Source of the DNA: a virus
Lineage: Duplodnaviria > Caudoviricetes
Virus record (IMG/VR): IMGVR_UViG_3300032335_001026
Location: 1-53,984 of that record
Reading direction: 5' to 3' (one strand)
Length of the DNA stretch: 53,984 nucleotides
Positions within the stretch are counted from its first letter, which is position 1. Every line of letters starts with the position of its first letter. The position numbers were made by a program, and so were the translations under genes. Under the pieces are notes generated by a model. The model saw nothing but the letters and a program-made list of their open reading frames with translations. It was not told where the DNA came from and did no database searches. Below are positions 1-46,259 of the stretch, piece after piece.

Positions 1-1
1 C

Positions 2-88
2 ACGGATGTCCCGGATACCTTTTCTAGAGTTCCTATGTGGCAGTGGCTTCAAGGCATGAACTCTCTATACCCCGAGGAGGACGACTGA
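2..88 (+). CDS. 3' end of a partial upstream ORF (...PMWQWLQGMNSLYPEEDD*)
   Basis: Open frame from nt 2 whose TGA overlaps the ATG at 88 (TGATG coupling); contains the GAGGAGG RBS. Confidence 0.5.
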   Translation, partial: TDVPDTFSRVPMWQWLQGMNSLYPEEDD

Positions 89-116
89 TGGCGCACGCAA
101 AGCTCAGCCCGTCGGG
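85..116 (+). repeat. 32-bp direct repeat shared with the window end (53953-53984)
   Basis: ctgatggc[g/a]cacgcaaagctcagcccgtcggg, one synonymous mismatch. Confidence 0.95.
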
Positions 117-1266
117 AGCGCATCGCTGGATGCGCTGCCCCGGCAGCGTCGCTCTCGAGGCGGCATTCCCCGACCAGAGCAGCTCCTACGCCGCCGAGGG
201 CACGCTGGCGCACACGCTCGCCAGTGAGTACCTCGACGGCACCGGGGACAACCCGTTCATGCGCGTCGGCGAGCAGCACGAGGTGGATGGGTTCATCTTC
301 ACCGTTGACCAAACCATGGCCGCTTACGTGATGGACTACGTCCGCCTCGTCCGCGAGTACGCCGGGGACAGCCTGCTGCTCGTCGAGCAGCGCGTGCCGA
401 TCGGTCAGATCACCGGAGAGCAGGGTGCCACCGGCACCAGCGACGCCATCGCGGTGGACATCGCCAACCGCGTGCTGTTCGTGATCGATCTCAAATATGG
501 TATGGGCGTCCGCGTCGATGCGGCCGACAACCCCCAGCTCATGTTGTACGCTCTGGGCGCGCTGGAGCAGTGCGACCAGCTCGGCGAGTTCGACGATGTC
601 TGCATGGTCATCCATCAGCCGCGTCTCAACCACGTCTCCGAGCACTGGCTGCCGGTCGCCGACTTGCTGGCCTTTGCCAACGACGTGCGCCTCGCAGCAA
701 TGAAGACCCGTGGGTACGATGTGCCTCCCCTCGTTCCCGGCGAGAAGCAGTGCAGGTTCTGCAAGGCCAAGGCGACGTGCCCGGCCCTCGCCGCCGATGT
801 GGCCGAGATCGTCAGCGGATCCGCCACCCTCGACGATTTCATCACGCCGGACGCGACGATGGGCGACAACTACCTGTCCGTGGCCATGTCCAAGGTGGAG
901 CTGGTCGAGCACTGGTGCAAGGCCGTCCGCGCCGAGGTCGAGCGTCGCCTGCTGGCAGGTCAGTCGGTGGACGGGTACAAGCTCGTCGAGGGCAAGCGCG
1001 GCAACCGCAAGTGGAGCAACGACGCCGAGGTCGAGGCCCTGTTCAAGTCCTTCCGCCTGCGGCAGGACGAGATGTACGACTACAGCCTCATCTCGCCGAC
1101 CAAGGCGGAGAAGCTGCTCAAAGACACCCCGAAGCGCTGGGAGCGGGCTCAGGCCCTGATCTCCCGCGCCGAGGGCAAGCCATCTGTGGCACCCGCCACG
1201 GATAAGCGGCCGGCACTGGCCGTTCAATCGGTCGCGGACGACTTCCGCGACCTAACTGCAAACTGA
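88..1266 (+). CDS. DUF2800-type Cas4-like PD-(D/E)XK exonuclease
   Basis: HAKLSPSGAHRW..CPGS, EGTLAH, GTSD...DLKYG, QLMLYALG, CRFCKAKATCP; first gene of a nuclease-SSB-PolA module. Confidence 0.9.
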   Translation: MAHAKLSPSGAHRWMRCPGSVALEAAFPDQSSSYAAEGTLAHTLASEYLDGTGDNPFMRVGEQHEVDGFIFTVDQTMAAYVMDYVRLVREYAGDSLLLVEQRVPIGQITGEQGATGTSDAIAVDIANRVLFVIDLKYGMGVRVDAADNPQLMLYALGALEQCDQLGEFDDVCMVIHQPRLNHVSEHWLPVADLLAFANDVRLAAMKTRGYDVPPLVPGEKQCRFCKAKATCPALAADVAEIVSGSATLDDFITPDATMGDNYLSVAMSKVELVEHWCKAVRAEVERRLLAGQSVDGYKLVEGKRGNRKWSNDAEVEALFKSFRLRQDEMYDYSLISPTKAEKLLKDTPKRWERAQALISRAEGKPSVAPATDKRPALAVQSVADDFRDLTAN

Positions 1267-1277
1267 AAGTGGATCAA

Positions 1278-1862
1278 ATGGCAACACGTATCATGCTCAA
1301 GAACATCGTTCTGGCCTTCCCGGCGCTGGCCGAGCCCCAGTCCTTCGGTGAAGGTGAACCGGCCTACGGCGCGAAATTCCCGATCAAGCCGGGCAGCGAA
1401 CAGCACAAGGCCCTCGAGGCCGCCATCCTTGCCGAGGCCACCGAGGCGTGGAAGGACAAGGCCGTCAGCGTTCTGAAGATGCTGGAAGAGGACGGCAAGG
1501 TCGCCTTCACCAAGAAGGTGTACCGCTCGAAGAAGACCGGCGAGGCCTATCAGGGCTTCGAGGGCATGCACTACCTATCGACCCGCAACGCCAAGACCCA
1601 GCCGACCGTCTTCAACCAGTATGGCGAAGAGATCACGGCCAAGGGTGAGATCGAGCGGCAGGCCTTCAGCGGTGCCGTCGTCAACGCCTCCGTCGAGGTG
1701 TGGGCGCAGGACAACAAGTGGGGCCGGCGCATCAACTGCTCCCTGCGCGGCGTCATGCTGACCGGCGAGGGTGAGAACTTTGGCGGTGGCTCCGCCCCGG
1801 CATCGGCCGACGAGTTTGCCTCGCTGGCCAAGGCCGCTCCCGACGCGGCTGACTTCCTGTGA
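1278..1862 (+). CDS. ssDNA-binding protein (DUF2815 / T7 gp2.5-like)
   Basis: LAFPAL, WAQDNKWGRRINCSLRGV...GENFGG, acidic/aromatic C-terminus; position in module. Confidence 0.85.
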   Translation: MATRIMLKNIVLAFPALAEPQSFGEGEPAYGAKFPIKPGSEQHKALEAAILAEATEAWKDKAVSVLKMLEEDGKVAFTKKVYRSKKTGEAYQGFEGMHYLSTRNAKTQPTVFNQYGEEITAKGEIERQAFSGAVVNASVEVWAQDNKWGRRINCSLRGVMLTGEGENFGGGSAPASADEFASLAKAAPDAADFL

Positions 1863-2113
1863 GCGGCGAGGGACACAACAGCGCAGGCGAGGATCTGCGC
1901 CTCCTGATCAAGCGCATCGAGACGCTTGAGGAGGAGAAGAAGGGTATCGCGGACGACATCAAGGACATCTACGCCGAGGCCAAGGCCCGTGGGTATGATG
2001 CCAAGATCCTCCGCCAGATCGTCCGCATCTGCAAGATGGCCAAGGACGATAGGAACGAGCACTTCGCCCTGCTCGACACATACGCCAAGGCCCTTGGCAT
2101 GGATCTCCTGTAG
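1859..2113 (+). CDS. gapR: GapR-like (DUF2312/UPF0335) DNA-binding protein
   Basis: LRLLIKRIETLEEEKKGIADDIKDIYAEAKARGYDAKILRQIVRI...LLDTYAKALGM matches the family signature. Confidence 0.9.
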   Translation: MSGEGHNSAGEDLRLLIKRIETLEEEKKGIADDIKDIYAEAKARGYDAKILRQIVRICKMAKDDRNEHFALLDTYAKALGMDLL

Positions 2114-2117
2114 GTCT

Positions 2118-2253
2118 ATACAGACGGCGCGCCTGCCCTGTTCCCCATTGCGGGGCAGGCGCGCCTCTGTTCTGGTGAGCCGCGCGTGGGTGCGGGTCTC
2201 CCTCCTGCGTTGCTGATAACCGAAGCGCGCGGCTCTCCCGAACAGAGGATGCC
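2118..2253 (+). ncRNA. Structured intergenic RNA / polA leader with an antisense loop
   Basis: Stems 2126-2138/2153-2165, 2177-2186/2226-2235 and 2164-2172/2240-2248; loop 2191-2218 complementary to early-gene leaders. Confidence 0.6.
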
Positions 2254-4218
2254 ATGAGCACACTGTACCTCGATACGGAAACCTTCTGCGAAACCAAGAT
2301 CACACACGGCGCGTACCGCTATGCGGAGGACGCCGAGGTGATGCTGGTGGCGTGGGCGTGGGACGGCGAGCCCGTTGAGGTCTGGGACACGCAGGACATG
2401 CCGCACTGGCGTGATGCGCTCCAGATGATGATCGACACCGCCGATCGCGTCGTTATCCATAACAGCAACTTCGACCGCACCGTCCTGCGCGAGCAGGGCG
2501 TCCACATCCCCGTGGAGAAGGTCATCGACACGATGGTGCTGGCCCTGCAGCACAGCCTGCCCGGCTCTCTGGGCCAGCTCTGCGACGTGCTGAACGTGCC
2601 GCAGGACAAAGCCAAAGACAAGGCGGGCAAGAAGCTGATACACCTGTTGACGAAGCCGAGGCCCAGCAACGTCCGGCTCAGGAGAGCCACCCGTGACACA
2701 CATCCCGCCGAGTGGGACGCCTTCGTCGAATATGCCCGGCTCGATGTGGACGCAATGCGAAGCGTACATGGGCGACTGCCAGCATGGAACGATAGTCCTG
2801 ATGAGCGGCACCTGTGGCTCTGTGACCAAAGAATTAATGACCGTGGTGTCGCCGTTGATCGAGAGTTCGCGAGATCAGCTCTACGAGCTTTCGATCGAGC
2901 TGGGCGATCTCTGGCCACTCGTGCAGCCGATCTGACCGGCGGCAGCGTCACGTCCACCACGCAGCGCCAGCGCCTGCTCGACCACCTCAAAGACGCCCAC
3001 GGCTTCGAGACCGAGGATTTGACGCGCGCCACGCTCGGCAACCTGCTCGACGGCGACCTCGACCCGCAGGTGCGCGAGCTGCTGGAGATCCGCCAGCAGG
3101 CGGCCGCGACGAGCCCGGCCAAGTACAAGGTGCTGCTCAACGCCACGAACCGCGACGGCCGCCTGCGCGGCCTGATCCAGTTCTGCGGCGCGGCGCGCAC
3201 CGGCCGCGACGCCGGCCGACTGTTCCAGCCGCAGAACCTGCCGCGATCGCCCGACTGGTTCGACGATGACGTGCAGGCGACCACCGTGGCCGCCATGAAG
3301 GCCGACTGCGAGCATCTGATCTGGGACAACGTCAGCGAGCGCTGCGCGTTCGCCGTGCGCGGGGCGCTGGTCGCCGCGCCCGGCACCAAGCTGGTCATCG
3401 CCGACCTGTCGAACATTGAGGGGCGCGTGCTGGCGTGGCTGGCCGGCGAGGACTGGAAGGTCGCCGCGTTCAAGGCCTACGACCGGGGCGAGGGGCACGA
3501 CCTGTACAAGGTCACCGCCGGCCGCATCCTCGGCAAAGATCCGGGCGACATCACCAAGGCCGAGCGGCAGTTGCAGGGCAAGGTGCCCGAGTTGGCTGGG
3601 GGCTATCAGGGCGGTGTCGGCGCATACCGCAAGATGGGCGGCCCGGTCTTCAACGCCATGACCGACGAGGCGATCCAAGAGATCGTCTCGGCGTGGCGCA
3701 AGGCCCACCCGCGCACGCGCAACCTGTGGTACGACATGGAGGCGGCCGCGCGGTCAGCCATCAACAATCTGGGCGAGAGCTTCGCCGTGCGCGACCTGAT
3801 CACGTTCGACGTGAAGCCGGACGGGCAAGGCATCGCGTGGCTGCGAATGAAGCTGCCGAGCGGCCGCTACCTGTGCTACCCGCACCCGGAGGTATCCGAC
3901 AGCGGCAGCCTGTCCTACGAGGGCATGAACCAGTACACCCGCAAGTGGGAGCGCCTCGACACCTACGGCGGCAAGCTGGTCGAGAACGCCGTGCAGGCCA
4001 TCGCCCGCGACGTGTTCATGTCCGGCATGCTGCGCGCCGAGGAGGCTGGCTACAGCGTCTGCATCCGCGTGCACGACGAGCTGGTCTGCGAGACGCCGGA
4101 TGAGCCGGCGTACAGCAGCGAGGGGTTGGCGGCGATCATGTCCACCAACCCGAGCTGGTCGGCCGGCCTGCCGCTGGCGGCGGCGGGGTTTACAAGCTAT
4201 AGGTACCGCAAGGACTGA
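2254..4218 (+). CDS. polA: Family A DNA polymerase with 3'-5' exonuclease
   Basis: LDTET, HNSNFDR, YARLDV exonuclease motifs; ADLSNIEGRV (motif A), R..GKVPELAGGY (motif B), RVHDE (motif C). Confidence 0.95.
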   Translation: MSTLYLDTETFCETKITHGAYRYAEDAEVMLVAWAWDGEPVEVWDTQDMPHWRDALQMMIDTADRVVIHNSNFDRTVLREQGVHIPVEKVIDTMVLALQHSLPGSLGQLCDVLNVPQDKAKDKAGKKLIHLLTKPRPSNVRLRRATRDTHPAEWDAFVEYARLDVDAMRSVHGRLPAWNDSPDERHLWLCDQRINDRGVAVDREFARSALRAFDRAGRSLATRAADLTGGSVTSTTQRQRLLDHLKDAHGFETEDLTRATLGNLLDGDLDPQVRELLEIRQQAAATSPAKYKVLLNATNRDGRLRGLIQFCGAARTGRDAGRLFQPQNLPRSPDWFDDDVQATTVAAMKADCEHLIWDNVSERCAFAVRGALVAAPGTKLVIADLSNIEGRVLAWLAGEDWKVAAFKAYDRGEGHDLYKVTAGRILGKDPGDITKAERQLQGKVPELAGGYQGGVGAYRKMGGPVFNAMTDEAIQEIVSAWRKAHPRTRNLWYDMEAAARSAINNLGESFAVRDLITFDVKPDGQGIAWLRMKLPSGRYLCYPHPEVSDSGSLSYEGMNQYTRKWERLDTYGGKLVENAVQAIARDVFMSGMLRAEEAGYSVCIRVHDELVCETPDEPAYSSEGLAAIMSTNPSWSAGLPLAAAGFTSYRYRKD

Positions 4219-4221
4219 GGC

Positions 4222-4758
4222 ATGAACACCGGCAGCGCATCTCTACCACACCACCAGTACGTTTGGGTCGATCAGTCGTTCATCCGCGAGGGCGGTGAGG
4301 GATTTGAGCCCGCCGTTTGGTTCGGCCTGCACAGTTATCCGGGCCGCGCGTGGGCCTGCCACGTGATGCTGGAGTGCGGTGCCGTGTATCGCGGCCTGCC
4401 GCCCCACGCGCTGGCCTTCAACGCCGACCCTGACGACTGGAAGCTGCCGCAGGCCGAGTTGTGGGACTGCTACGGCCGAGACTTCTCGCTGTTGATCTAC
4501 ACGTATCTCGACGGGCTGCAGGCGGTCACCACGGACGGCATCCTGTGCGACTACCTCTTCACGGCGGTGCCGATCGGGGACGCGTACAGCGCACACCCGT
4601 CGCAGAGCAAGGAGTTCATGTTCATGCGGACGGCCGGCGGCCGCTTGGTGATCCTGCCGACCAACAAGCTGCGCTTCATCGACAAGAGCTTCACCGCCGA
4701 GGGCGAGCGTGCGAGGCTGAAGCTGTCCGACACGGTGTGGAGCTGCGAGGAGCAGTGA
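4222..4758 (+). CDS. Conserved phage hypothetical protein
   Basis: Coupled ORF with RBS; GAVYRGLP, LWDC, YLFT, PTNK motifs. Confidence 0.75.
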   Translation: MNTGSASLPHHQYVWVDQSFIREGGEGFEPAVWFGLHSYPGRAWACHVMLECGAVYRGLPPHALAFNADPDDWKLPQAELWDCYGRDFSLLIYTYLDGLQAVTTDGILCDYLFTAVPIGDAYSAHPSQSKEFMFMRTAGGRLVILPTNKLRFIDKSFTAEGERARLKLSDTVWSCEEQ

Positions 4759-5048
4759 CACCCGCCGGCAAGCTGCAGGAGCACCTGAAGCAGAAGGTGC
4801 AGAAGAGCGGCGGCCAGTACCGCAAGGTGCGCTGGGAGGGACGCAGTGGCTGCCCTGACTGCTACATCTGGTGGACGTGGCCGCGCGCCGCCTTCGTCGA
4901 GATCAAGGTCGACGGCGACCGTCTCAGCGGCCACCAGCAGCGCGAGATCGAGCGCATGCGCGGCGACGGCATGCCAGTGTTCATTGCGCGGTCGATCGAG
5001 GACATCGACGAGATCGTAAAAAAAGTTCGGGAGGGGGTTGAAACCTAG
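4755..5048 (+). CDS. VRR-NUC nuclease
   Basis: GTG start; GRSGCPD...FVEIK...LSGHQQRE. Confidence 0.85.
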   Translation: MTPAGKLQEHLKQKVQKSGGQYRKVRWEGRSGCPDCYIWWTWPRAAFVEIKVDGDRLSGHQQREIERMRGDGMPVFIARSIEDIDEIVKKVREGVET

Positions 5049-5091
5049 CGTTGCACGTGCCACTAAGGTGCATCAGCAACGGAGACCGACC
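5034..5091 (+). promoter_or_regulatory. Early promoter/operator repeat copy
   Basis: TGAAAC-N5-GTTGCA, TGC, CATCAGCAACGGAGAC RBS. Confidence 0.7.
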
Positions 5092-5253
5092 ATGAAAACC
5101 CTCGGACAACTCGCCTACGAAGAAGACGTTCGCCGCAAGCCGAACTATCTCCCGCGCGTGGACGGCACCGTGCTGCCGCGCCTGCCATGGGAGCAGCTTG
5201 GCGCGATGGAGAAGTGGTCGTGGGAGAAAGATCCTACGCCGAGGAAGTGGTGA
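5092..5253 (+). CDS. Small hypothetical protein
   Basis: ATG after GGAGA RBS, directly behind a promoter repeat. Confidence 0.7.
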   Translation: MKTLGQLAYEEDVRRKPNYLPRVDGTVLPRLPWEQLGAMEKWSWEKDPTPRKW

Positions 5254-5284
5254 GGAAGGGGCTGGTAACTCAGGAGCAAACGAC

Positions 5285-5464
5285 ATGACCATCCGCAAAA
5301 ACTACAAAGACCGGACGACCATTTTCGAGTGCGATATCTGCGGGGACGAGTACGAGGCCGAGGGCCTCGATTTCTACGACGCGTACGAAGAGTATAAGAA
5401 CAACGGCGGGATTGCTCGTCTCGAAGGCGGAGACTGGGAACACCATTGCGAAAGCTGCCGGTGA
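5285..5464 (+). CDS. Small zinc-finger protein
   Basis: CDIC...HCESC; AGGAG RBS. Confidence 0.7.
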   Translation: MTIRKNYKDRTTIFECDICGDEYEAEGLDFYDAYEEYKNNGGIARLEGGDWEHHCESCR

Positions 5465-6819
5465 CCTTCAAGCCGCACGCCTATCAGGCCGACATCATCG
5501 ACTTCATTTGCGAAAATCGGCGGTGCGGGGTCTGGGCCAGCATGGGGTCGGGAAAAACTGTTTCCACCCTGACGGCGCTGGAGGCGCTCTCCGTGGTCGA
5601 GGACGTGTACCCGGTGCTGGTGCTGGCACCGCTGCGCGTCGCGCGATCGACGTGGACGGACGAGGTCAAGAAGTGGCCGCATCTCGCGCACCTGCGCGTC
5701 AGCGTCATCACCGGCACGCCTAAGCAGCGTCAAGCGGCGCTGGACACGCCGGCCGACATCTACACGACCAACTTCGACAACCTCGTCTGGCTGCGCGAGA
5801 CGCTCGGCGACGCGTGGCCGTTCCGCACCGTGGTCGCCGACGAGTTCACCCGGCTGAAGAGCTTCAGGCTGCGTCAGGGCGGCTCACGGGCGCGTGCGCT
5901 GGGTCAGGTGGCCCACACGCACGTCACGCGCTTCATCGGCCTGACAGGCACCCCTGCGCCCAATGGCGTGAAGGATCTCTGGGGGCAGGTCTGGTTCCTC
6001 GACAAGGGCGAGCGGTTGGGGCGCACGTTCAGCGCCTTCACCGAACGCTGGTTCCACAAGGGGTACGACGGCTACAGCCTCGTGCCCTTCGACCACACGC
6101 AGGCGGAAGTGCAGGAGCGGCTCAAGGACATCTGCCTGACCGTGCGCGGCCTGCCGGTCGATGAGCCCATCACCACGCCGCTCTACGTTGATCTGCCGCC
6201 TGCGGCGCGCCGCGCGTACAACGAGATGGAGACGGAGATGTATGCCGTCATCGGCGCAGAGGGCGTGGAGGCGGCCAACGCGGCGGTGCGGACGCAGAAG
6301 TGCCTGCAGCTCGCCAACGGCGCGCTGTATACCGACGAGAACGGCAATTGGGAGGCGGTGCATGATGCCAAGCTGGAGGCGCTGGACAGCGTCATCGAGG
6401 AGGCCAACGGCGCGCCCGTCTTGGTGGCCTACAATTTCAAACACGACTTGGCCCGGCTACGCAAGCGCTACCCTAGAGGCCGGGTGCTGGACGCTGACCC
6501 TGATACGATCAAACAGTGGAACAGGGGGGAAATCGAACTACTTTTCGCTCACCCTGCATCGGCGGGCCATGGCATCTCGCTCCAGTACGGGGGCAACATA
6601 ATCACGTTTTTTGGCGTAAATTGGAATCTCGAGGAGCACATGCAGATCATCGAGCGCATCGGCCCGATGCGCCAGAAGCAGGCCGGGTATGATCGGCCGG
6701 TGTTCGTCTACCCGATCCTCGCCCGCGACACGGTCGATGACCTCGTCATGGATCGTCTCACGTCGAAGAAGAGCGTGCAGGAAATTTTATTGGAATCGAT
6801 GAAGCGGAGGAAGAAATGA
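5461..6819 (+). CDS. SNF2-family (SF2) helicase
   Basis: MGSGKT, DEFT, LTGTP, HPASAGHG, ERIGPMRQ. Confidence 0.9.
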   Translation: MTFKPHAYQADIIDFICENRRCGVWASMGSGKTVSTLTALEALSVVEDVYPVLVLAPLRVARSTWTDEVKKWPHLAHLRVSVITGTPKQRQAALDTPADIYTTNFDNLVWLRETLGDAWPFRTVVADEFTRLKSFRLRQGGSRARALGQVAHTHVTRFIGLTGTPAPNGVKDLWGQVWFLDKGERLGRTFSAFTERWFHKGYDGYSLVPFDHTQAEVQERLKDICLTVRGLPVDEPITTPLYVDLPPAARRAYNEMETEMYAVIGAEGVEAANAAVRTQKCLQLANGALYTDENGNWEAVHDAKLEALDSVIEEANGAPVLVAYNFKHDLARLRKRYPRGRVLDADPDTIKQWNRGEIELLFAHPASAGHGISLQYGGNIITFFGVNWNLEEHMQIIERIGPMRQKQAGYDRPVFVYPILARDTVDDLVMDRLTSKKSVQEILLESMKRRKK

Positions 6820-7259: not shown

Positions 7260-8918
7260 TCACACGCCGTATTTCGCAGCCAGTTCTTCCGTGTCAACCG
7301 AACCGCCCTGCGCCATCAAAGGCATCTCGCCCTTGAGCATTTTTTCCATGACGATGTCGGGGGATACGCCAAGGCGGTCGGCGGTGTATTTTATGCGCGC
7401 CTCAAACGTCTTCAGGAACGGCTCAGCAACAGAGCCGAGGCCCGTGTCTTCGCCGCCGCCGACCCACATCGAGGCTTGATACTGCGCGGGTGACATACCC
7501 ATCTTTTTGGCTTGGTCTTGCTGCCACGCCTCGTAGTAGCCGTACTCGTTGTCTTGGGGGGCCGACGCCCAAAAAGAGGGACGATCCACCGCCTCGTCCA
7601 TCGAGATAGAGCCGGACTCCAGCCAATCTTGCGGGCGATACGTCACCTTTGGCTTTTCGCCACCGAGTTTGCTGGCGAAGGCATCGAGGTCGGCACCCTG
7701 CATGTTCGGGTACTGCGCCATCAAATCGCTGATGATCGTAGCCCTGTCGTTCAATCCGGGTTTGACAAGCTCGTCGATAGAGGTTGCGAGGAAGCGTGGA
7801 TCTCGGCTGATGATACCCGGCAAACGGAAATTGTGCGTATCAATGGTGGAGACCTGCTGGTTGCCTTGCAGGTTGCTGGAAAAACTTGCGGGCTTCGGGT
7901 TCTCAAAGACGTTCCACCCGCCTTGCTGACCGATGTTACGGGCGTGCCTGACGTGGCTTTTCTGCGCGATAGAACCGTACCCCGGCGCTGGTTTGTCGGG
8001 TACTGGAAGGCCATTCTTCAGCAGATAGTTGTAGTACGACGCCATGCGGATGTTGTCTTGCACCTTGGCGCGAGGGCTGGTGGCCGCGACGATGTCCATG
8101 AGGCGCGCGTATTCGCCGGGCGCGTTGGTCGCGCCAACGGAACTGACCAAGCGCCGAAACAACGGATCAGTGTTGTACCACTCCTTGCCACCAAGTTCTG
8201 AGCCGCGATCAACGGTTTCGTTGATGCCCTTCACCACCAGTGGGTCGTTAAGCGCGTCAATGATGCGGGGCGACGGGCCGAGTCGAGGTTGATACCGAGG
8301 GATTTGAAACTGGGGTACATTCGGCACCTGACCGAGCGAACCGTAATCAAACATAGTACCCAGATCAGCCTCGTTGGCGGCCCGCCAATCCGAGAAAGAT
8401 GGCGCGCCTTTTTCCTTTCCCGAGGTAGCGGCAAACACGTCGGCGGCGAGGTCGCGGTTTGTACCAGAGCCCGTTTTCAAATAAGCGGGAGCGCTCGTTG
8501 CCTTCACGGCGAGAGGTGCCTTCGCCGGTGTTTTCGCGGGCGCGGCGGACTTCGCCACCTTCTTCGCGGCCTTGCCTGCGCCCGGAAGCGGCAGCGCGGC
8601 GAGCGCCACGTTGGCCGCCGCCTCGCCGCGCTTGCCCTCGCGGACGGCAAGAGCCGCCTCGTTGCCGACGAACGCGGCACCGGCGGGCGTGAAGTCAAGC
8701 ACCTGCATCAGCTTGTCGGCGTTCCTGCGCCCAACGCGCACCGCCAGTTTGTCCTTGAGTTGATCGCGCAGCGACACATCCCGGGCGCTAATCTCGCCAA
8801 ACTGCTGACCATCGTTGGCTCTGAGAGCCGCAAGTACCGCGCTGGGCGCGGTGTAGTCCACACTGAACTCGCCGCCGCGCTGCGGCGTCACGGCGAAGGG
8901 GGAGTCAGTGCTGCGCAT
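7260..8918 (-). CDS. Putative virion-delivered effector B: shared leader plus HhH-GPD glycosylase-like (DUF7178-like) domain
   Basis: WY..AATSP....N, K..F..NL, TIDTH..R, Y..E...A...G.SPAQYQA.MW; N-terminus paralogous to 8918-10192; C-terminal MAQGG. Confidence 0.65.
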   Translation of the reverse strand: MRSTDSPFAVTPQRGGEFSVDYTAPSAVLAALRANDGQQFGEISARDVSLRDQLKDKLAVRVGRRNADKLMQVLDFTPAGAAFVGNEAALAVREGKRGEAAANVALAALPLPGAGKAAKKVAKSAAPAKTPAKAPLAVKATSAPAYLKTGSGTNRDLAADVFAATSGKEKGAPSFSDWRAANEADLGTMFDYGSLGQVPNVPQFQIPRYQPRLGPSPRIIDALNDPLVVKGINETVDRGSELGGKEWYNTDPLFRRLVSSVGATNAPGEYARLMDIVAATSPRAKVQDNIRMASYYNYLLKNGLPVPDKPAPGYGSIAQKSHVRHARNIGQQGGWNVFENPKPASFSSNLQGNQQVSTIDTHNFRLPGIISRDPRFLATSIDELVKPGLNDRATIISDLMAQYPNMQGADLDAFASKLGGEKPKVTYRPQDWLESGSISMDEAVDRPSFWASAPQDNEYGYYEAWQQDQAKKMGMSPAQYQASMWVGGGEDTGLGSVAEPFLKTFEARIKYTADRLGVSPDIVMEKMLKGEMPLMAQGGSVDTEELAAKYGV

Positions 8919-10192
8919 CAGTTGAGCATCCCATATTCGCGCAGCAGGCGCGCTTTCTCGTCGTAGTTGCCGGGCGTCACGGCGAGACCGCCACGGGCGA
9001 AACTCTGTTCGGCTTCATACTCTGCCATGGCGGCGGCGGGAATAGCCATGCCCGGAGCCCAGCCGTAACGCTTGAGGATGGAGATCAGCTTGTCGTCGAA
9101 CACGACATAATTGCGCGTGCCGTCGCCAGCGCCACGGCTGCCTTGGTCAAGGTATTTGATGCCCGCTACACCCTGATCGGCCATGCGCTTAGCGATTGCC
9201 GACGCGCTTTTAGCTGTAGGCGACAAATCAGAGCCGCGTTTCCATCCCGTCATGGCAGCATAAGCGCCAGAACCAGACATTTTGTCGGCAATATCCGGCA
9301 GGATGCGCGATTGTGCTGCTATTGCCCGTTCAACTTCAGGCTGTGCCAGAATAACCGCCCGCAACTTCTCGCTCTGCCCGCTCAACGGCGCATCGTAGTC
9401 CAGAAAATCAGCCGGGTCTGCGTCGATGCGGACTTGATACATGGAGCCTTTAGGTACGTCCATTGTTTTACGAAATGCCTCAATCAAATCAGGAGTAAGT
9501 TCTTTTCCTGAATAATTAGCAAAGTCTCTAGCCGCAACTTCTGGGAACAAATTATTTGTTGTTCGTGCAAAAGTCATCGCATGTCCTCTGTCGTTCGGAG
9601 ACAGACCTATTTTTTTAAACTCTATCGAGTTCATAGCGCCTTTAGTCAGCGCATCGCGATACCCCTGCGCCACATCTTCGTTCTCCGCAAAATACAGCCC
9701 GTGGCCATACGCCTGCGCGCCTTCGCCTGTGCCAATCTTGCTCATGTCGAAGCGGTCAAACGTGTGCGGGCTGCCGTGATAGGCGATGATGCCTCGCGGC
9801 TTGACTGCCAGCGGTGCCACCTTCTTCAGTGCCTTACCCGCGCCGGGCAACGGCAGTGCGGCAAGGGCCACATTGGCCGCAGCCGCTCCACGACGTCCCT
9901 CGCGGGCAGCCAGCGCCGCCTCGTTACCCACGAACGCGGCACCAACGTGCGTGAAGTCGGCCAAGTCAATCAGCTTGTCGGCGTTCCTGCGCCCAACGCG
10001 CACCGCCAGTTTGTCGCGGAGCTGATCACGCCACGATGGCTCGCGCGCCTCAAGGCGGCCACGCCCGACGATGTCCGTCGGATCGAGCAGATCGGCGACA
10101 TCGGCGCTGGGCGCGCTGTAGTCCACACTGAACTCGCCGCCGCGCTGCAGGCGCTGGGGTGTCACGGCGAAGGGAAAGTCGGTGGAGCGCAT
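8575..10192 (-). repeat. Duplicated leader-coding sequence of the two effector genes
   Basis: 47-nt identity 8707-8753 = 9969-10015; 45 nt with one mismatch 8839-8883 vs 10104-10148. Confidence 0.9.
8918..10192 (-). CDS. Putative virion-delivered effector A: shared leader plus ADP-ribosyltransferase-like (ART-PolyVal-like) domain
   Basis: AYHGS..F..F...IGTGEG.QAYG.GLYFA, GIKYLD...NYVVFD; C-terminal FARGGLAV. Confidence 0.7.
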   Translation of the reverse strand: MRSTDFPFAVTPQRLQRGGEFSVDYSAPSADVADLLDPTDIVGRGRLEAREPSWRDQLRDKLAVRVGRRNADKLIDLADFTHVGAAFVGNEAALAAREGRRGAAAANVALAALPLPGAGKALKKVAPLAVKPRGIIAYHGSPHTFDRFDMSKIGTGEGAQAYGHGLYFAENEDVAQGYRDALTKGAMNSIEFKKIGLSPNDRGHAMTFARTTNNLFPEVAARDFANYSGKELTPDLIEAFRKTMDVPKGSMYQVRIDADPADFLDYDAPLSGQSEKLRAVILAQPEVERAIAAQSRILPDIADKMSGSGAYAAMTGWKRGSDLSPTAKSASAIAKRMADQGVAGIKYLDQGSRGAGDGTRNYVVFDDKLISILKRYGWAPGMAIPAAAMAEYEAEQSFARGGLAVTPGNYDEKARLLREYGMLN

Positions 10193-43754: not shown

Positions 43755-44051
43755 TCAGCGGCCGATGTTGGTGATGCCGCCGCGAGGGCCGACCTGAACG
43801 TGAGCGGTGTCGCGGGCGAAGATGGAGGCCAGCGTGCCTTCGTCGTTGGGGAGACCGGCTTCGACGTACAGCGTGACGTAGTTGTTGTTGCTGTACCGGC
43901 TGATTTCGAGCTTCTTGATCTCTTTGCGGTCGCCAACGGTCTTTGTGATGACACGCTCTGCTGCCTTGCGCTGAGCAGGAGCAAGATCGTCGAGCGAAAC
44001 AACCTTGGTAGCAGCGGCCATTTCAGCGAGGAGGGTGTCGAGGTCGGTCAT
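43755..44051 (-). CDS. Early hypothetical protein
   Basis: Behind a promoter repeat; C-terminal VGPRGG. Confidence 0.75.
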   Translation of the reverse strand: MTDLDTLLAEMAAATKVVSLDDLAPAQRKAAERVITKTVGDRKEIKKLEISRYSNNNYVTLYVEAGLPNDEGTLASIFARDTAHVQVGPRGGITNIGR

Positions 44052-44116
44052 TGGGTGTCTCCGTTTGTTGATAATTGCTTCTCTCACATGCAACGCACCG
44101 TTGCAAGCACTATTTT
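44052..44116 (-). promoter_or_regulatory. Early promoter/operator repeat copy
   Basis: Perfect TGCAAC-N5-GTTGCA; 39 bp identical to 44367-44405. Confidence 0.8.
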
Positions 44117-44146: not shown

Positions 44147-44341
44147 TCAGGCTTTGCGGGCCGCACGCTCGCGCAGGTAGCGGCGGATGTTCTTGAGGCG
44201 GCGCTCGAGGCGGTAGGCAGCGCCGTCAGCTTCGAGGTGGGCGTCGCGGCGGGCGACGTAGGCCGGATTGCTTTCGAGAGCTGCCTTCTCGGCGTAGAAG
44301 GTGGCGATGGTGGCGGCGGTGCGGGTGGAGTAGATGGTCAT
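44147..44341 (-). CDS. Early hypothetical protein
   Basis: Behind a promoter repeat with AAGGAG RBS. Confidence 0.7.
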   Translation of the reverse strand: MTIYSTRTAATIATFYAEKAALESNPAYVARRDAHLEADGAAYRLERRLKNIRRYLRERAARKA

Positions 44342-44405
44342 GTGCGTTGCTCCTTGTTGATGACCTCTTCTCTCACATGCAACGCACCGTTGCAAGCACT
44401 ATTTT
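44342..44405 (-). promoter_or_regulatory. Early promoter/operator repeat copy
   Basis: AAAATAG..TTGCAAC-N5-GTTGCA. Confidence 0.8.
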
Positions 44406-45277: not shown

Positions 45278-45349
45278 AAATAGGGGTTGCAACGCCACGT
45301 TGGGTATGCGAGAAGAGGTCATCAGCAACGACCAACCGGAGACACCGAC
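45277..45349 (+). promoter_or_regulatory. Early promoter/operator repeat copy
   Basis: AAAATAGGGGTTGCAAC-N5-GTTG, CATCAGCAAC, GGAGAC. Confidence 0.75.
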
Positions 45350-45535
45350 ATGGCCAAGCCAGCCGCCACTTTTGCCGAAATAGAAGCATGGTTGATCGAA
45401 GACGCGGGGGACATTGCCGACCGCCTTGAGCGCGCTGGTGTAACGCGCCAGTTTGGAGTTTTGGACAGCATCGTCAAGGTTCAGCTTGATGAGTACCGCG
45501 CTGAGTATCTTCGTAACTTCAACGTCACCTACTGA
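45350..45535 (+). CDS. Early hypothetical protein
   Basis: ATG after GGAGA RBS. Confidence 0.7.
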   Translation: MAKPAATFAEIEAWLIEDAGDIADRLERAGVTRQFGVLDSIVKVQLDEYRAEYLRNFNVTY

Positions 45536-46191: not shown

Positions 46192-46259
46192 AAAATAGTT
46201 GTTGCAACCTGACGTTCAAAATGCGATGGAAAGTCATCAAGCAACGAGGAGACACCGTC
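46192..46259 (+). promoter_or_regulatory. Early promoter/operator repeat copy
   Basis: AAAATAGTTGTTGCAAC-N5-GTTCAA. Confidence 0.75.

Follow-up and report, generated by a model that had tools for sequence, protein, structure and literature searches.

A hairpin before the DNA polymerase gene of an uncultured freshwater phage carries a conserved loop complementary to the shared leaders of early genes

Phage antisense RNAs include P22 sar and P4 CI. In P4, the seqB segment of the transcript is complementary to both seqA upstream and seqC downstream, and the CI RNA brings about premature transcription termination in immunity; the C4 RNA of P1 and P7, which matures from a precursor as a stable small RNA, carries two separate recognition segments. 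In T4, RegA is a translational repressor and RegB a nuclease cutting GGAG in early Shine-Dalgarno (SD) sites, and in Staphylococcus the RNAIII and Rsa RNAs use a C-rich single-stranded loop to pair with the SD of several mRNAs. A hairpin overlaps the ribosome-binding site of a replication or early gene in the T4 gene 43 operator and at the RNase III site of the lambda N leader. Lambda OOP and aQ (PMC12197685) and P1 C4 (PMC8546580) are further phage antisense RNAs. Those known to date act mostly on one gene or transcript. We found no description of an antisense RNA directed against a leader common to a class of phage early genes in the literature searched, which included the 2025 review PMC12197685 and excluded subscription journals, and the main text of that review holds no occurrence of 'early gene' or 'leader'. 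Here, we describe a hairpin lying before the DNA polymerase gene of an uncultured freshwater phage. The DNA analyzed, hereafter the window, is the complete IMG/VR entry IMGVR_UViG_3300032335_001026, with 53,984 bp, 64% G+C and an estimated completeness of 91%. We propose, with moderate confidence, that the loop of this hairpin functions by antisense pairing with start regions shared among early genes, as an "anti-leader" element within the replication-operon mRNA.

A GapR-like gene (1859-2113) and the gene for DNA polymerase A (2254-4218, + strand, with DNA_pol_A and DNA_pol_A_exo1 matches) are separated by a gap of 140 nucleotides (nt), in which the element sits. The + strand of 2101-2270 folds at -93.4 kcal/mol (z = -6.25), a stability attained by none of 200 shuffles, and forms two hairpins. 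Hairpin 2, directly 5' of the polymerase gene, comprises 85 nt and 22 bp (2164-2248, + strand). Its outer stem of 9 bp pairs 2164-2172 with 2240-2248, two middle pairs (2174-2175/2237-2238) follow in the predicted fold, and an inner stem of 11 bp, predicted here and present in relatives, joins 2177-2187 to 2225-2235. Enclosed is an apical loop region of 37 nt (2188-2224) which holds the anti-leader. This consists of an anti-SD run, CTCCCTCCT, read from the sequence at 2198-2206, and adjoining it the 11-mer CGTTGCTGATA at 2208-2218, the reverse complement of the early leader, which we term the anticore. Ten loop nucleotides, GTTGCTGATA, are single-stranded in both the minimum free energy and the centroid folds, leaving the anticore unpaired. 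The outer-stem pairs cover GAACAGAGG, the SD region of the polymerase, and the 3' arm overlaps the SD itself (AGAGGA, 2244-2249). Thus, as in an SD-sequestering operator, the SD of the downstream gene lies inside a conserved, covarying stem. An earlier, sequence-only reading of this DNA had recognized a 10-bp stem at 2177-2186/2226-2235 and an element of 59 nt. Its stem and loop are present, with the stem extending to 11 bp, whereas the full element measures 85 nt and additionally sequesters the polymerase SD.

Hairpin 1 (2126-2165, + strand) is terminator-like, with a GC-rich stem of 16 bp, an 8-nt loop and a T-rich tail, TCTGTTCTGG, which doubles as the outer-stem 5' arm of hairpin 2 (2164-2172). 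It fits the intrinsic-terminator pattern in that 13 of the 16 pairs are G-C, with a tail of just 5 T in 8, and relatives have a hairpin of other sequence with a T-rich tail at the same position. A short motif, GTCTATAC, stands ahead of hairpin 1 at 2111-2123, right after the GapR-like stop codon, and its position is kept in relatives as GTCTATAG or GCTATAG. A comparison of the window with Rfam, which the sequence-only reading had suggested, returned no match at gathering score, and a scan of 2050-2320 at E up to 10 gave generic hairpin matches only (12-19 bits, against thresholds of 40-100).

The early genes of the window share a cassette composed, in order, of an AAATAG..TTGCAAC box, about 17 nt, a weak -10, (C/T)ATCAGCAAC, 0-9 nt, GGAG and the start codon. 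The window contains 8 copies of the 9-mer ATCAGCAAC where 0.37 would be expected, and none of 100 shuffles has as many as 8. Four copies are found at promoter-linked leaders (5072, 45321, 47560 and 52764), three are coding and one is inverted in the loop, in agreement with the earlier claim that the reverse complement of 2191-2218 resembles the early leader. As a whole, the 28-mer at 2191-2218, read on the minus strand, is unique in the window at up to 3 mismatches.

All ten leaders named by the sequence-only reading exist, and their duplexes with the loop range from -19.6 to -36.6 kcal/mol, each being matched by 0-3 of 300 shuffled loops. The strongest partner is the operon-head leader and start region (52763-52790, + strand; 9-mer at 52764) of gene 52788-53102, the first of the replication operon, and the match formerly picked out as the best, at 52763-52788, indeed yields 25 bp at -36.6 kcal/mol. 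The loop resembles an inverted copy of this leader over about 30 nt. Motif and duplex together also mark, on the + strand, the early leaders at 5072-5094 (gene 5092-5253), 45321-45352 (gene 45350-45535), 46236-46262 (gene 46260-46514, whose core has a 1-nt insertion), 47560-47583 (gene 47581-47784), 48608-48634 (gene 48632-48820) and 50060-50081 (gene 50079-50279), as well as a leader-like start region with no promoter of its own at 47784-47812 (gene 47810-48055). Two leftward early leaders with variant cores, at 44339-44361 (gene 44147-44341) and 44049-44072 (gene 43755-44051) on the minus strand, are weak partners. The idea of a loop pairing with about ten early leaders is thus supported in part: all of them beat shuffled loops, but the leftward two pair poorly. 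A Pfam scan assigned no family to 8 of 8 early-leader genes (61-98 amino acids), nor to genes 5092-5253 and 52788-53102.

We compared the locus with relatives found through the polymerase protein (67 viral loci) and through alignment of the polymerase (80 more). From an alignment of 19 hairpins we built a covariance model, which recovers the element on the + strand of 30 of 39 sources, ahead of either the polymerase or a gene that intervenes, and in 22 of 67 further sources. The model does not find it at nine loci (L050-L055 and L057-L059; polymerase identity 39-48%), and it gives no match at E up to 1 in the cultured relatives Caulobacter phage RW and Bordetella phage BPP-1, to which the replication genes of the window are about 68% identical in DNA. 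Pairing is intact in 98% of stem cells across 25 distinct sequences; both sides have changed in 13 of the 22 pairs, and none of 500 shuffles does as well, in an alignment that was fitted to the model and so favours the structure. With 44 distinct rows, 96.6% of cells pair and G:U occurs in 29 cells against 2 for A:C, counts which include kin and are not independent events. It follows from this bias that the + strand folds and that the structure is read as RNA. The anti-SD run is retained 5' of the anticore in all loops listed, and the outer stem includes the SD of the downstream gene in every case of both the 25-row and 44-row sets.

In metagenome contigs (runs X3 and X5) the match to the hairpin is exact up to 2249 and diverges at 2249/2250; one divergent variant continues into a different gene, preceded by a start region of the GTATCAGCATG type, the motif found in cis. 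Since the divergence falls exactly here, the 3' end of the hairpin is a mosaic junction and the boundary of a mobile module. In many relatives, including L021 (3711-4004), a gene for 97 amino acids lies between hairpin and polymerase, with its stop overlapping the polymerase start; this gene, absent from the window, has only a helix-turn-helix (Sigma70_r4) match below threshold. Phage RW has the same gene order (L162 6441-6536, between gp056 and the DNA polymerase), in which a terminator-like hairpin is followed by a short hairpin that buries the polymerase SD and has a 3-nt loop with no anti-leader.

Comparison of the loop with distant leaders across clades reveals complementarity that is kept while the sequence changes. 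In G001, whose polymerase is 63% identical to that of the window, the loop is CGTTGTTGGTA and ACCAACAAC occurs in 8 copies against 0.19 expected: six at leaders, each with a TTGCAA/TTGAC-type -35 box upstream, one elsewhere and one inverted in the loop. The window-type ATCAGCAAC heads only one promoterless start region in G001. The picture is reversed in G000, G003, G004 and G005, each of which has 8 copies of ATCAGCAAC with the loop copy inverted. In the G001 loop, C has become T and A has become G, changes that leave wobble pairs with the former leader possible, as on the classical path of compensatory change in RNA helices; the point counts for little, transitions being the commonest mutations anyway. 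In G002 (57% polymerase identity) the loop core is lost, and three promoter-linked leaders share 8-11 nt with the loop complement, GGAGGGACACC. Elsewhere the loop complement shares two 11-nt blocks with one leader (L124), 9 and 10 nt with the operon-head leader and 10 nt with a second leader (L147), 12 nt including a loop-specific position (L153), and a 9-nt block of SD and spacer with three start regions (L085). As would be expected of the seed of a small RNA, the anticore is unpaired, ten leaders beat shuffled loops, the core has switched in G001, and blocks of SD and spacer match in G002, L124, L147, L153 and L085. The sequence-only reading had named a lack of loop-leader covariation in relatives as grounds for its own rejection; the G001 switch and the SD-spacer blocks supply that covariation.

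Own loops pair with operon-head leaders at -23 to -38 kcal/mol, shuffled loops at -10 to -17, and in 14 of 14 pairs none of 500 shuffles reaches the own value. In the cross-clade matrix of operon-head leaders, the G001 leader alone clearly favours its own loop (-23.2 versus -9 to -14), the other clades having a common core. Copies of the leader core plus SD with no promoter stand right behind GC-rich, terminator-like hairpins in G004 (36814), G005 (11533 in polymerase sense) and G001 (2506 in polymerase sense), and thus the leader motif is not solely a promoter element. The G001 copy at 2506 remains of the ATCAGCAAC type, whereas the promoter-linked leaders of that phage are ACCAACAAC. Taken across clades, the comparative evidence argues strongly for selection on the loop-leader relationship.

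The loop is also related to the start region of the next gene. An exact loop complement of at least 8 nt between SD and AUG of this gene, which we call a cis block, is present in 26 of 44 distinct rows, compared to 1% when loops are shuffled. Blocks average 7.93 nt for own loops and 6.36 nt for foreign ones, and 20,000 permutations did not once attain the own mean. The blocks are of about ten different sequences, among them GTATCAGCA with the loop ..GATAC.., GTTATCAGCA with ..GATAAC.., GGATCAGCA, GAAGGATCAGC, TCAGCAACGA, GAGGACACC and TGGGACAACC, and every haplotype is internally complementary, loop to cis site. The cis site is lacking in the window (longest block 4 nt), in the relatives L003, L035 and L010 (4-5 nt) and in the CGTTGTTGGTA clade (5-7 nt, SD only). 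L003, L035 and L010 are the closest relatives of the window with the polymerase directly downstream, and they keep the loop despite the missing cis site. The structure, then, is real and conserved, and its loop is complementary to, and covaries with, both the early leaders and the downstream start region.

The simplest account of these facts would be RNA-RNA pairing of the loop with clade-specific ribosome-binding regions, because the loop is displayed by a + strand hairpin, the anti-SD lies beside the anticore in the right polarity, the complementarity is kept while the sequence changes, and the partners are both far and adjacent. The RNA would come from the replication operon. This string of genes probably begins at the promoter and leader near 52,740-52,790, provided that both record ends adjoin in the phage genome; the primase-helicase gene (50685-52724) immediately precedes this operon-head promoter. 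On the + strand from position 1 to 5037 no GTTGCAAC-type box was found at 1 mismatch or less, and a sigma-70 promoter scan of 1500-5500 returned no sites. The replication-operon transcript is the likely source of the RNA, as the sequence-only reading had supposed, because the stretch from the operon-head promoter to the hairpin contains no phage-type promoter. Transcription from the operon head would presumably read through hairpin 1 and would then place hairpin 2 on one molecule with its best partner, the operon-head leader.

We propose that the loop base-pairs, RNA to RNA, with early start regions, either within the same long mRNA, between molecules, or after excision of the hairpin. Pairing over the SD would block ribosome binding and initiation, the duplex of 20-25 bp between loop and leader may be a substrate for RNase III, and translation of early genes would be turned down once the replication operon is transcribed. 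Separately, the outer stem would mask the ribosome-binding site of the polymerase. A more far-reaching version is that the hairpin is excised from the replication-operon mRNA and acts in trans, silencing the whole early regulon through the common leader and SD while also gating polymerase translation, such that one RNA of 85 nt times the switch from early expression to replication. This version is possible, and we regard it as doubtful.

Several observations weigh against functional pairing of the loop with the leaders. The clear core switch arose once, in a single clade. Some leaders place an A opposite a C of their own loop, which requires G: two ATCAACAAC leaders of G003, and the leftward leaders at 44361 and 44072, the weakest of the ten in the window. 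L083 and L084 have no leader match of at least 8 nt within the small stretch of flanking DNA available. When own and foreign loops were compared by best start-region energy in a 17 x 17 test, own loops ranked 1 to 16 of 17, with a mean of about 7 (6, 7, 5, 4, 1, 3, 15, 13, 7, 1, 4, 10, 16, 8, 3, 12 and 8), and cis ranks were alike; this test does not discriminate because long GC-rich loops win everywhere. RNAduplex likewise finds GC-rich coding stretches of the window, unrelated to leaders, that reach -46.8 kcal/mol against -36.6 for the top leader. With each loop run against six entire records, the best sites beyond its own complement were mostly unrelated GC-rich coding windows, and a leader came near the top just in G003 (rank 1) and G004 (rank 3). 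Raw duplex energy is therefore unusable as a discriminator, and the energy scan with shuffled controls that the sequence-only reading had advised does not pick out the leaders in this GC-rich genome.

Other points against the proposal concern the RNA itself and its cis site. Promoter scans and inspection of the sequence delimit no separate small RNA by a promoter or terminator, and no T run that would make an intrinsic terminator follows hairpin 2. The public RNA run consists of contigs only, which lie on 1285-1723, 2463-2497 (35 nt of a single contig) and 2589-2783 in a relative; the hairpin is uncovered and the run is silent on its expression. The loop and its cis site are just 30-40 nt apart, so they can be co-inherited. 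Furthermore, a linker of about 1 nt leaves hardly any room for loop-cis pairing alongside a full outer stem; the two would therefore be alternatives, or the pairing would occur between molecules.

The cis blocks also invite a reading in which the hairpin is a translational operator acting in cis only. It would control the gene directly downstream, either the polymerase or the small inserted gene plus the polymerase, by masking the SD and by an alternative pairing in which the loop binds the spacer between SD and AUG, and the complementarity to early leaders would be a by-product of one start-region design common to these phages. The blocks in 26 of 44 rows, with many compensating sequences and none of 20,000 permutations attaining the own mean, speak for it, as does an outer stem that always holds the downstream SD. 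The divergence at 2249/2250 is consistent with a hairpin that moves as a module with varying downstream genes, and phage RW has a terminator and an SD-sequestering hairpin before its polymerase without a large loop, and so cis masking may be the older function. However, the window, its closest relatives and the CGTTGTTGGTA clade keep the loop without a cis site, and in the CGTTGTTGGTA clade the loop has changed together with distant leaders. The CGTTG and anti-SD parts of the loop are conserved though unused by the commonest cis block, and the spacer mirrored by the 5' halves of the loops is that of the operon-head leader, at a distance of 3.4 kb. We consider an operator acting only in cis unlikely.

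Neither of two further readings requires pairing by the loop, and we give both very little weight. The 9-11-bp core could be a DNA site at +1 of the early promoters, bound by a phage or host protein such as a repressor or initiation factor, of which the copy before the polymerase is merely inverted. The core does lie about 5-7 nt downstream of a -10-like hexamer in every early promoter, and a changed protein specificity would equally predict covariation of all copies, including the inverted one. Yet the inverted copy always stands in the loop of a covarying + strand hairpin with the G:U bias given above (29 cells, with A:C in 2), the match spans an SD and spacer which differ between clades, G002 and L085 match through SD and spacer instead of the core, and the leader motif is also present at promoterless start regions. 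No candidate binding protein was found, the early genes having no Pfam family. Alternatively, the two hairpins could serve only in termination and processing: a terminator and an RNase III-type site would set the polymerase message apart from the genes before it, and the loop would be a relic of an inverted duplication, its likeness to the leader preserved by gene conversion. Hairpin 1 fits the terminator pattern, hairpin 2 is a 22-bp stem with small bulges, which is the size of known RNase III sites, and the loop resembles the inverted operon-head leader over about 30 nt. A relic would decay, yet the loop is complementary to its own leaders from 93% to 57% polymerase identity, with sequences that differ by clade, and its anticore is single-stranded in the predicted fold.

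Three other candidates were set aside. A leader or small open reading frame (ORF) on the minus strand was dropped: near 2217 there is no TTGCAA-type promoter (no GTTGCAAC within 1 mismatch) and, in the window clade, no ATG, GTG or TTG at a usable distance after GGAGGGAGA, both as previously reported for the window, whereas in the G001 clade an ATG is present at a usable distance. A role for the loop as an rRNA mimic, the leaders pairing with 16S rRNA, was dropped because the polarity would not fit. A replication origin or invertible segment was dropped, the orientation being constant in all relatives.

We also noted features in the surroundings of the element and of the early genes. Upstream of the GapR-like gene lie three small genes of unknown family, a DUF2800/PD-(D/E)XK nuclease gene and an Enc34-type single-stranded DNA-binding protein gene. 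The divergent early promoter-leader cassettes form an inverted repeat of 60 nt (80%; 44346-44405/45277-45336) around about 870 nt, an interval with runs of short GCAGCA/TGCAGC-like repeats and with a similar stretch in G004; these repeats are possible operator sites of an early control region. In the early region, the ORF at 48866-49435 (+ strand, 189 amino acids) matches PF03118, the C-terminal domain of the RNA polymerase alpha subunit, above the cutoff (E = 1.7e-07), and its product could be a mimic of this domain that redirects host transcription. The ORF at 49477-50019 contains GCC-rich direct repeats of 9/12 nt in 20 overlapping copies (49785-50032, + strand), and its product is of low complexity, rich in Ala, Asp and Tyr, and without a Pfam family. 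Finally, a direct repeat of 221 nt with 81% identity (8554-8774 and 9816-10036) is common to the adjacent large minus-strand ORFs 7260-8918 and 8918-10192, the latter with a weak ADP-ribosyltransferase (ART-PolyVal) match slightly under the cutoff.

Comparison with the described systems indicates what the anti-leader hairpin would share with them. It is like P1/P7 C4 of the immI operon, which is an operon-internal antisense RNA that is co-transcribed with its target, presented by a hairpin and active on a ribosome-binding region downstream in the same transcript, as the cis block would be in 26 of 44 relatives. The differences are that the window copy has no downstream target (4 nt) and its best partner lies upstream, at the operon head; that the anti-SD and anticore are adjacent in one loop; that about ten dispersed early leaders plus the first gene of its own operon are the partners; and that the element sits in a replication operon, with no sign of a role in lysogenic immunity, as no integrase or repressor was found among the 38 window ORFs scanned, a scan that was not exhaustive. 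It also matches no Rfam family, C4 antisense RNA included. Of the resemblance to C4 and P4 CI that the sequence-only reading had drawn, an operon-internal antisense layout is likely here, but the element belongs to no Rfam family by sequence or structure. The likeness to P4 CI is one of layout: upstream the partner would be the operon-head leader and downstream, in relatives, the start region. These partners are ribosome-binding regions, however, and nothing points to control of termination.

The CTCCCTCCT run in the loop recalls RNAIII and the Rsa RNAs, which differ in having their own promoter and terminator; none were found here, and specificity would come through the additional 11-nt anticore. 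The outer stem covers the polymerase AGAGGA much as the hairpins of T4 gene 43 and lambda N cover their sites, although those have no loop complementary to the leaders of other genes, and phage RW has such a plain version. With 44 distinct members, the hairpin makes a new structured RNA family that is useful for the annotation of viral metagenomes. It offers a compact design that could be programmed by altering loop and leaders in concert. If the proposed pairing is right, control of a regulon would be achieved in less than 100 nt, a case strengthened by co-evolution with the leader, and it would explain why an identical 5' leader is kept on unrelated orphan genes. Functionally, this would resemble T4 RegA and RegB, which act after transcription on the ribosome-binding regions of many early mRNAs and shut them off. 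There the effectors are proteins, whereas here the proposed effector is an RNA loop whose specificity comes from the shared leader and which, were the excised hairpin to act in trans, would be an RNA counterpart of RegA and RegB in a widespread family of freshwater phages.

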